In this document: one piece after another, positions 6,001 to 9,000 of the stretch
Position numbering within the stretch: the stretch's first letter is position 1
Layout of the letters: each line of letters starts with the position of its first letter
Made by a program: the position numbers
Source: Escherichia coli
GTDB lineage: Bacteria; Pseudomonadota; Gammaproteobacteria; Enterobacterales; Enterobacteriaceae
Length of the DNA: 64,000 nt
Assembly: GCF_041886205.1 (NCBI RefSeq)
Contig: NZ_CP169029.1
Direction: 5' to 3' (one strand)

Positions 6001-9000
6001 GTGAAGACCGCGCTATTCATAAATTCTTCCGTGAAAGCGCCTTTCCTGCGGAGGCGCAAATTCATGAAATACTCAACGTACTTAGCGAGAATGACGGTCT
6101 TACCCTACGAGGCATTGAACAACGGACGAATCTCCGTTATGGGCAAATAGAAAAAGCACTGAAATTATTGGTAGCTGAAAATCCATCGCCTGTGGTGTAT
6201 ACCGAGAAATTATGGCGCAGAACTATCGTCAGTTTCTCTCCTGACCATGAACGAATTAACCATTTGATGAATCAGAGAAAAAATGAGCTGGCAGATGTTG
6301 AAAGCTATATCACGACCAAGGAGTGCAAAATGCAATTTCTGCGCCGCGCACTCGATGAGCCAAGTGCCGAACGTTGTGGTAAATGTAGCAGTTGTCTTCA
6401 GCATCCGTTGCTGTCGCCCGATATTGATAGCGGCTTACTCCATGCGGCAAATTTATTTATTAAACACGCTGACCTGCCATTAAATCTCAATAAACAGGTA
6501 GCATCTGGGGCTTTTACGCAATACGGATTTAAAGGGAACTTGCCTGCGGGTTTACAAGGATCTACGGGGCGAGTCCTTTCTCGTTGGGGAGATTCCGGGT
6601 GGGGAAAGCAGGTAGCACAGGAGAAAAAAACGGGGCGATTCAGTGATGAGCTGGTGGAGGCATGTGCGGAAATGGTTCGCCAACGCTGGAATCCGCATCC
6701 TGAACCAACCTGGGTATGCTGCGTTCCTTCATTAAGGCACCTCGACCTGGTTCCTGATTTTGCCCGGCGACTGGCGGCGAAACTTGGCTTACCTTTTATT
6801 GATGCCATTGAAAAAGTCGTGGACAATCCACCGCAGAATATGCAGCAAAACCGTTTTCACCAGTGTCAAAATCTCGACGGGGCGTTTGTGATTACCCCTC
6901 CTTTGATGCCAGGTCCGGCGTTGCTGGTTGACGATATCGTGGATTCTGCATGGACGCTGACAGTTCTGACAGCACTGTTACGCCAGGCAGGTTGCCCGAC
7001 GGTTTATCCTCTTGCCCTTGCTTCTACCTCGGTAAAAAATTGATGAATCTTTCAGCCAATGCACAAGCGACTCTCCTGCTAACCAGCGATTTTTCTCGCG
7101 CGGCGGCGAGTGAGCATAAACCTCTTAGTAATAGTGAATGGGGGAAGTTTGCATTATGGCTGAAGCACCAACGTATCAGTCCCGCCGAGCTTCTGGTGCC
7201 GCAACCGCAAGAGAAACTTACAGGCTGGAGCGATCCGCGTATTTCTCAGGAGCGTATTCTTGGCTTGCTGGCGCGCGGTCATAGTCTGGCGTTGGCGGTA
7301 GATAAGTGGCAACGCGCCGGTTTATGGATCATAACCCGAGGAGATGCTGATTATCCCGTTCGCTTGAAAAACCGATTGCGAACGGATGCACCTCCCGTTT
7401 TATTTGGCTGCGGGAATAAAGCATTACTGCAAGCGGAAGGTATGGCGATTGTTGGCTCGCGAGATGCTCCGACTGACGATTTGCGCTATACCCAACAACT
7501 GGCCGCGAAACTGGCCCAACAGGGGATTTGCGTTATCTCTGGTGGTGCGCGAGGTATTGATGAATGTGCAATGGCGTCGGCACTGGAGGCCGGGGGAACT
7601 GCCGTTGGCGTATTAGCTGATAGCTTGTTAAAAACGAGTACGTTAGTGAAATGGCGTGAAGGGCTTATAGCAGGCAACCTGGTGTTGATTTCGCCGTTTT
7701 ACCCAGAGGTGCGTTTCACCGTCGGCAATGCGATGGCGCGAAATAAATATATTTATTGCCTTGCTGAAAGCGCAATGGTTGTACGTGCGGGAATGACCGG
7801 TGGAACGATAACCGGGGCGATAGAGGCATTAAAACATCAGTGGCTGCCTGTGCAGGTTAAACCAAATCAGGATATGCAATCAGCCAATTCACGATTAGTA
7901 GAAAATGGGGCGTCATGGAGTGCTGAACAGGCTGAGAATGTGCCGATCAGACTGTCAGACGTTCCTGGGCTGATGTATGACAGAGCACTCCGTAACGCTC
8001 AACCAGAACTGTTTTCGCTGTATGAAGATGACGCAAATTACGCAGTAATGCCCGCGCATACGCCTGTCGATTTTTATCAACTCTTTGTGGCGGAACTGGC
8101 GATCTTTGCAAAGGAATCGATAAGTATTGAAAGGCTGTCGTCTTGTACTGGTTTAACCATCGAACAAATTAGTGTGTGGCTGAACCGCGCAGAAGAAGAG
8201 GGAAGGGTTATCCGATTGGGCGAAGGTCATTATCAGTTCAGGTAATAAAACAGGTGCCGCGTCTGGTTGTGTGCAGCACCTGTTTGAACCTTACCCCTTC
8301 ATCCACATTCGAATGCCGTCGAGGAACATCTGGGTTGCCATCATCACCAGAATCAATCCCATCAGGCGTTCAAGTGCGTTCACCCCTTTCTCGCCCAGCA
8401 GACGTAAAAATAGCGAAGACTGTAGCAGGATGACAAAGGTGCCGCCCCAGGCCAGCAGCAGAGCAATCACCAGATGTCCCATCTGATTTGGGTACTGATG
8501 AGACAACAACATCAGCGTGGCGAGAATAGTCGGCCCGGCGACTAACGGAATTGCCAACGGCACGATAAATGGCTCTTCACCTGCCGGAAGCCCGCTGCTA
8601 TTTCCTGAAGCGCTGGGGAAAATCATCTTAATGGCGATCAGAAACAGTATGATGCCGCCAGAAATGGAGACGGTTTCTGCTCGCAGGCTAAGAAATGCCA
8701 GAATTTTCTCACCCGCAAACAGGAACACCAGCATCACCAGGAGAGCAATAAGCAACTCTCGCACCATGATTGCCCGCCGTCTTTTCGGTTCAGTATGTTT
8801 CAGTACGGACATGAAAATAGGTAGGTTTCCGAGCGGATCCATAATCAGGATCAATAAAACTGCTGCAGAAATGATTTCATTCATAACTCAAATTCCCTGA
8901 TAATTGCCGCGGACTTTCTGCGTGCTAACAAAGCAGGATAAGTCGCATTACTGATGGCTTCGCTATCATTGATTAATTTCACTTGCGACTTTGGCTGCTT

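Follow-up and report, generated by a model that had tools for sequence, protein, structure and literature searches.

A RecQ-like helicase gene and a DprA-like gene share a single nucleotide on an Escherichia coli chromosome, which raises the question of whether the second protein is made by ribosomes that have just finished the first, and whether such an overlap says anything about what the two genes do. We addressed both points in a 64,000-nucleotide stretch of contig NZ_CP169029.1 (hereafter the window). The overlap itself is real: in the sequence and in the ORF list alike, the stop codon TGA at 7041-7043 and the start codon ATG at 7043-7045 have A7043 in common, an overlap of 1 nt. In the window the junction reads ...TCG GTA AAA AAT TGA TGA ATC TTT..., and a second in-frame stop of the helicase gene, TGA at 7044-7046, which the earlier note on this DNA had missed, makes the full motif TGATGA. 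A 55-nt sequence spanning the junction was found in 1644 of 5426 complete E. coli genomes, and the junction is identical across E. coli lineages in which the surrounding cassette is 96.5-100% identical.

The junction belongs to a known two-gene operon of E. coli, rqlH-rqlI, which is the same as PsyrTA. Pfam matches uphold the labels originally given to the two genes, RecQ-like helicase and DprA-like: RqlH matches DEAD and Helicase_C, with weak matches to RecQ_Zn_bind and, at aa 605-683, to Pribosyltran, and RqlI matches DNA_processg_A (PF02481) at aa 89-292 with 172.6 bits. The PADLOC profile PsyrT scores 1057 bits against RqlH over profile positions 5-687 of 689, and PsyrA scores 661 bits against RqlI, with residues 1-400 lying on profile positions 1-397 of 398. 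Among NCBIfam models, RqlH passed the recQ_fam subfamily model (254 bits vs a cutoff of 220) and fell below the RecQ equivalog TIGR01389 (297 vs 640), while RqlI fell below the DprA equivalog TIGR00732 (102 vs 191). A PDB sequence search returned no structure of RqlH, RqlI or their complex, the nearest entries being RecQ cores, DprA and ShosA. As is characteristic of PsyrTA/RqlHI, the genes are adjacent and co-directional with the toxin gene upstream, an order that is the same in 80/80 loci of the family survey described below. The pair departs from canonical toxin-antitoxin (TA) modules of type II in the size of its proteins (698 and 400 aa, not ~100) and in having the toxin upstream, not the antitoxin.

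The earlier note had treated the pair as uncharacterised, although it has been published since 2013-2015, and by 2015 both the operon structure and the tendency of the rqlI start to lie near or overlap the end of rqlH had been described (PMC4670107). In the extraintestinal pathogenic (ExPEC) E. coli strain F11, the genes for RqlH and RqlI (698 and 400 aa) are co-transcribed, as seen by RT-PCR across the junction (PMC4670107). RqlH alone causes SOS induction, filamentation and mutagenesis through its phosphoribosyltransferase-like (PRTase) domain, and PRTase mutations abolish the toxicity (PMC4670107). RqlI co-immunoprecipitates with RqlH, an interaction lost on deletion of the PRTase domain, and RqlI truncations without the N-terminal 84 residues and the helix-turn-helix (HTH) domain no longer neutralise RqlH (PMC4670107). 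Its authors called RqlHI a non-canonical TA system (PMC4670107). The window pair comes from the same species and has the same genes, sizes and domains as the F11 pair (Russell & Mulvey 2015, PMC4670107), a paper whose analysis did not take in the junction, the Shine-Dalgarno (SD) sequence or coupling. No functional difference between the two pairs is expected, and by analogy with F11 the window RqlH would be toxic alone and neutralised by RqlI.

Related systems place the pair in a wider setting. The window genes match both PADLOC profiles of PsyrTA over their full length, and the toxin is upstream in both systems. PsyrTA is listed as a phage-defence system, and protection has been reported for cloned PsyrTA (Sberro 2013; Millman 2022); psyrA deletion could not be transformed, probably through toxicity (PsyrTA study). 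Defence is known for cloned homologs from other organisms, whereas for the native E. coli PsyrTA of strain NILS69 protection was undetectable against the phages tried in one study. ShosTA is alike in its DprA-like antitoxin (PADLOC ShosA, 93.5 bits; PDB ShosA 9vzo, E = 2e-7) and in a PRTase toxic module; it differs in that ShosT has no RecQ helicase and in that it is reported to be type IV, its toxin and antitoxin showing no strong interaction, unlike RqlH and RqlI, which co-immunoprecipitate. The three domain types combined in RqlHI are also those of the competence proteins ComFA (helicase), ComFC/GntX (PRTase-like) and DprA, as noted in PMC4670107, but RqlH and RqlI score far under the RecQ and DprA equivalog cutoffs, and we found no evidence of a DNA-uptake role for RqlHI. 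Strain 6EVA, to which the window allele is 100% identical over the cassette, has its canonical gntX at another place in the same region.

This cassette is an accessory part of the E. coli chromosome. The window carries yhhW, gntR, gntK, gntU, rqlH, rqlI, yhgN, asd, glgBXCAP, glpD and glpEG, and further along a DeoR/GlpR-family regulator in the glpR position and rtcRBA. Aligned with the empty-site strain Combat13F7, the common sequence stops at 4807 and restarts at 8291, so that the cassette stands in place of the 56-bp gntU-yhgN spacer of empty-site strains. It is carried by 1641 of 5426 complete E. coli genomes (~30%), always on the chromosome and always at the gntU-yhgN site. A terminator-like hairpin at its left end sets gntU apart from the rqlHI unit. 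At its right end, a second hairpin sits between the convergent rqlI and yhgN genes with its U-tract on the yhgN strand, and the pattern scan called no plus-strand terminator there. An Rfam search of junction and cassette gave no RNA element match at E <= 1.

Table 1. Features of the rqlH-rqlI locus, in window coordinates.
Feature	Position	Strand	Details
Accessory cassette with rqlH-rqlI	4808..8290	.	3483 bp; comparison with empty-site strain Combat13F7
Terminator-like hairpin	4819..4846	+	12 bp stem, then CATTTCTCTT; pattern scan; directly 3' of gntU
rqlH SD, AGGAG	4936..4940	+	6 nt before ATG; duplex -7.4 kcal/mol, rank 6 of 36 starts scored
rqlH / psyrT	4947..7043	+	698 aa; RecQ-like helicase with C-terminal PRTase-like domain (toxin); PADLOC, Pfam, NCBIfam
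Upstream in-frame ATG, RefSeq/PGAP start of gene 2	6950..6952	+	431 aa, 94-nt overlap; rejected
Weak SD-like GGU of rqlI	7031..7033	+	-12 to -10; -3.0 kcal/mol; in last rqlH codons (TCG GTA)
A6 run	7034..7039	+	A-rich unstructured spacer between GGU and junction
Junction TGATGA	7041..7046	+	rqlH TGA 7041-7043, rqlI ATG 7043-7045, second in-frame rqlH TGA 7044-7046
rqlI / psyrA	7043..8245	+	400-aa DprA-like antitoxin; C-terminal helix-turn-helix region; PADLOC, Pfam, homologs
GC-rich hairpin after rqlI TAA TAA stops	8248..8285	.	RNA fold -18.9 kcal/mol

As a sign of function the overlap is weakly informative. The earlier note had read it as what one expects of a toxin/antitoxin or effector/regulator pair; the TA-like identity is right, in line with the published toxicity of RqlH and its neutralisation by RqlI, but the overlap is not diagnostic of it. 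The same junction types occur within the window at glgB/glgX (4-nt overlap), glgC/glgA (1 nt) and feoB/feoC (1 nt), and since these are housekeeping pairs, an overlap is no marker of a TA pair. About 15% of co-directional gene pairs overlap in most prokaryotic groups (PMC6728339). Stop/start overlaps being routine in bacterial operons, the one seen here is of little significance in itself; what our analysis adds is a corrected rqlI start, a survey of the junction across the family and a conserved GGU.

To follow the junction beyond E. coli, we scanned representative genomes and obtained 80 loci, of which 79 aligned to the RqlH C-terminus and the RqlI N-terminus and one did not; the survey set (n=80) consists of 79 loci of other species and the E. 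coli copy. Throughout these 80 loci the distance from the rqlH stop to the rqlI start is always between -4 and +6 nt. An ATGA junction at -4 nt is found in 40 loci and TGATG or TAATG at -1 nt in 15, while the starts of 21 loci lie at +1 nt, of three at +3 nt and of one at +6 nt. On a neighbour-joining tree of the antitoxin, the junction changed type at least 13 times and none came to exceed 6 nt, with pairwise identity down to 50%. In the closest relatives, the Silvania (L002) and Klebsiella (L003) loci, the junction reads AAT GGA TGA with a 4-nt overlap, where E. coli has AAT TGA TGA. The E. coli form could have come from this by one GGA to TGA change, with the stop placed one codon earlier and the old stop left as a back-up. 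A junction that has changed type at least 13 times without ever passing 6 nt is consistent with selection for coupling the translation of the antitoxin to that of the toxin, although part of this conservation is inheritance, because the 80 loci are phylogenetically related.

A short element upstream of the rqlI start is conserved as well. As originally noted, no strong SD precedes rqlI: its best duplex with the 16S rRNA 3' end is formed by GGU only and reaches -3.0 kcal/mol, against a median of -4.5 kcal/mol for 35 annotated starts in the window. Such a weak SD argues against efficient independent SD-driven initiation. Among the 38 non-redundant loci whose genes overlap by 4 nt, every one has GGT at -12 to -10. 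The Ser codon is thereby fixed even at its synonymous third position, whereas other third positions vary freely, which points to selection at the RNA level for a small SD-like element. Many relatives have the SD sequences GGUGA or GGGGA/GGAGA, and these might support reinitiation or independent initiation alike; E. coli lacks their GGUGA because it has GTA instead of GTG, and it keeps the GGU. Together, the family-wide tight junction and the invariant GGU fit an antitoxin output translationally tied to toxin output, and they give a concrete sequence-level argument that it may be so.

Two groups of loci also differed in SD energy when scored with a 9-nt anti-SD (mean -3.1 vs -6.1 kcal/mol, p = 3e-13), a difference that we do not claim: the two groups are separate clades, and the difference largely vanishes with UCACC in the 16S tail, because GGUGA then scores -7.6.

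RNA structure at the rqlI start is slight. Opening the region from -20 to +15 costs 6.5 kcal/mol, compared with a window median of 9.8, which puts it among the five most open of 34 starts, and a 120-nt fold of the junction is no more stable than its shuffles (z = 0.08), with no stable mRNA structure over the start. This rejects an mRNA structure that hides the rqlI start, as in classical coupling.

We judge that coupling by reinitiation is probably the dominant route of RqlI translation. Ribosomes recruited by the strong rqlH AGGAG would translate all 698 codons up to UGA 7041-7043, and a fraction of those terminating there would start again at the AUG 2 nt downstream, probably aided by the conserved weak GGU and by the unstructured A-rich spacer that follows it. 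Reinitiation at this point would tie RqlI synthesis to RqlH synthesis from the same mRNA. We infer it from the general rule for overlapping pairs and from how narrow the junction stays throughout the family. The rule agrees with what the earlier note had taken as usual for this arrangement: of 14 overlapping pairs tested, 13 proved to be coupled (PMC6728339). Coupling requires a distance below ~20 nt, and close pairs are enriched among subunits of heteromeric complexes (PMC10666635); the 1-nt overlap of rqlHI and the family range of -4 to +6 nt both lie well inside this distance. Neutralisation needs the C-terminal PRTase of RqlH and the N-terminal region of RqlI, whose coding sequences flank the junction, an arrangement in which coupling would favour immediate neutralisation in cis. 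Co-translational capture of RqlH by RqlI would be an attractive extension of this idea.

Coupled pairs known from E. coli offer the nearest comparison. Like rqlHI, the pairs hyfHI, astDB and ydbH/ynbE (Huber 2019, 2023) are co-directional and meet in an ATGA or TGATG junction; they have an SD-like element in the 3' end of the upstream gene, for which the weak GGU is the candidate in rqlHI. They differ in that they are reporter-tested and have predicted structures over the start, whereas the rqlI start is unstructured and coupling there is what we infer.

The strongest competing explanation holds that the overlap reflects genome compaction and nothing else, with RqlI coming mainly from independent 30S initiation or from an internal promoter and its level untied from RqlH translation. 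We consider this unlikely. The openness of the start region speaks for it, and because that region is unstructured and A-rich, independent initiation may contribute alongside coupling. So does bioBF, the one uncoupled E. coli pair in Huber 2019, which has a weak SD and no occluding structure, as at rqlHI, so that the share of independent initiation could be substantial; some strains, such as strain 277, keep an intact rqlI next to a broken rqlH. Yet independent initiation would have to make do with the weak rqlI SD, the coupling of 13 of 14 tested overlaps runs counter to compaction as the sole cause, and compaction alone does not predict a junction held to 6 nt or less in 80 loci through at least 13 changes of type. 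As for an internal promoter, a sigma-70 scan of the plus strand detected none for rqlI; the scan is crude and uninformative on a promoter inside rqlH, because the rqlH promoter went undetected as well.

Coupling as the dominant route can be carried a step further. On a reading that we hold to be rather improbable, PsyrTA would need its tight junction as an essential safeguard: RqlI synthesis would depend strictly on reinitiation by the ribosome that had just released the toxic C-terminal PRTase domain, and each RqlH would be captured co-translationally in cis. Were it true, disturbed termination or reinitiation, for example through phage takeover of translation, would free the toxin, and if rqlI were moved more than 20 nt away from rqlH and given its own, equally strong ribosome-binding site, the operon would become toxic or its triggering would change.

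Coupling at TGATGA also presupposes that rqlI begins there. RefSeq places the start of gene 2 at ATG 6950, which would make a 431-aa protein with a 94-nt out-of-frame overlap with rqlH and would leave TGATG with no part in initiation. This is very improbable, even though 6950 is the PGAP call in every E. coli record examined and the 431-aa cluster counts 3041 member sequences. Three lines of comparison, the PsyrA profile alignment, the homolog alignment and the 80-locus survey, agree in identifying ATG 7043, the start preferred in the earlier note, as the true one. The alignment to the PsyrA profile begins at residue 1 of the 400-aa form, which is M32 of the 431-aa form, and 27 of 27 aligned homologs begin MN- at the position of ATG 7043. 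No homolog outside E. coli covers more than 93% of the 431-aa form or has a counterpart of the 31 extra residues (MDADSSDSTVTPGR...). Just 9 of the 80 loci have an ATG at -93, and in 55 there is no start in frame upstream whatsoever; in E. coli, ATG 6950 arises incidentally from GCA TGG, the conserved Ala-Trp codons of the PRTase motif. The site has no SD (-3.1 kcal/mol), and at 17.2 kcal/mol to open it ranks with the most structured starts of the window. The protein active in experiments was the 400-aa form (PMC4670107). A TTG at 7040, one codon upstream of ATG 7043, was rejected as the rqlI start, being a start codon in just 4 of 80 loci, E. coli included.

Less probable still, and barely credible, is that the A AAA AAT run promotes -1 frameshifting or polymerase slippage to make a functional 1099-aa RqlH-RqlI fusion: a -1 shift or one added A does bring rqlH into the rqlI frame, and A7 is found in one genome (L086), but this is 1 of 1644 genomes and an assembly with other frameshifts in the locus, most of the family lacks the A run and typically has GGTGAAAGACTCATGA instead, the 120-nt fold has no frameshift-stimulating structure at the junction, and a fused rqlH-rqlI arrangement occurs in 0 of 80 loci.

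The start position has a practical consequence for annotation. RefSeq/PGAP appears to over-extend RqlI by 31 codons (431 aa vs the supported 400 aa) in thousands of E. coli records, and because of this over-extension an innocuous poly-A change is recorded as an rqlI frameshift.

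The start of the antitoxin RqlI looks systematically over-extended in current annotation. RefSeq/PGAP places it at 6950, giving a 431-aa protein (WP_072141620.1, WP_001443175.1, WP_001303704.1) whose cluster holds 3041 member sequences, whereas homologs and the profile favour a 400-aa form. The tandem TAA TAA that closes rqlI (window 8243-8248) resembles the tandem TGA TGA closing rqlH. Across the family loci surveyed (L002-L081), codon 2 of the antitoxin (position +4) is always A-initial in the -4 class, with its 4-nt overlap, encoding Asn, Ser, Thr or Ile, because the embedded TGA stop demands it. 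Residue 2 is less constrained in the +1 and +3 classes, where Asn, Thr, Asp, His and Leu occur.

Just upstream of the rqlH/rqlI junction, A7 replaces A6 in 1 of 1644 genomes, that of E. coli WP4-S17-ESBL-03. Read as assembled, the longer run would fuse rqlH and rqlI in frame into a predicted protein of 1099 aa; PGAP marks this rqlI as frameshifted only because it takes the long start. Since the same assembly carries further frameshifts within rqlH, the A7 may be a sequencing error. In a second E. coli strain, 277, rqlH is a pseudogene and rqlI is still intact. Near codons 596-605, the PRTase region of rqlH contains a tandem duplication of 29 bp, and the gene has another indel as well; the toxin seems to be the first to be inactivated.

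Features at the rqlH-rqlI locus and in two variant E. coli strains
Feature	Position	Window equivalent	Strain or basis
A7 variant, possibly a sequencing error	L086 2601-2656	7034-7039	WP4-S17-ESBL-03
rqlH pseudogene	L084 548-2672	about 6734-6762	277
Apparently over-extended part of RqlI annotation	window 6950-7042		RefSeq/PGAP start vs homologs and profile

The cassette is 100% identical to that of strain 6EVA. Comparing window 1-50000 with NZ_CP138428.1 base by base gives 2423 differences, probably because an indel late in the window puts the two sequences out of register. The window is thus not just strain 6EVA. The interval between glgP and glpD (window 19937-22935) holds a 505-aa gene, PstS-family according to PGAP, whose start appears to differ between the window and 6EVA. 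It also contains a pair of hypothetical genes, 2 nt apart, one of 258 aa and one of 199 aa. Stop/start overlaps also occur elsewhere in the window: glgB/glgX by 4 nt and glgC/glgA by 1 nt (window 10452-15921), and feoB/feoC by 1 nt (window about 43850-46180), where the feoC Shine-Dalgarno sequence is weak as well (-3.0 kcal/mol).
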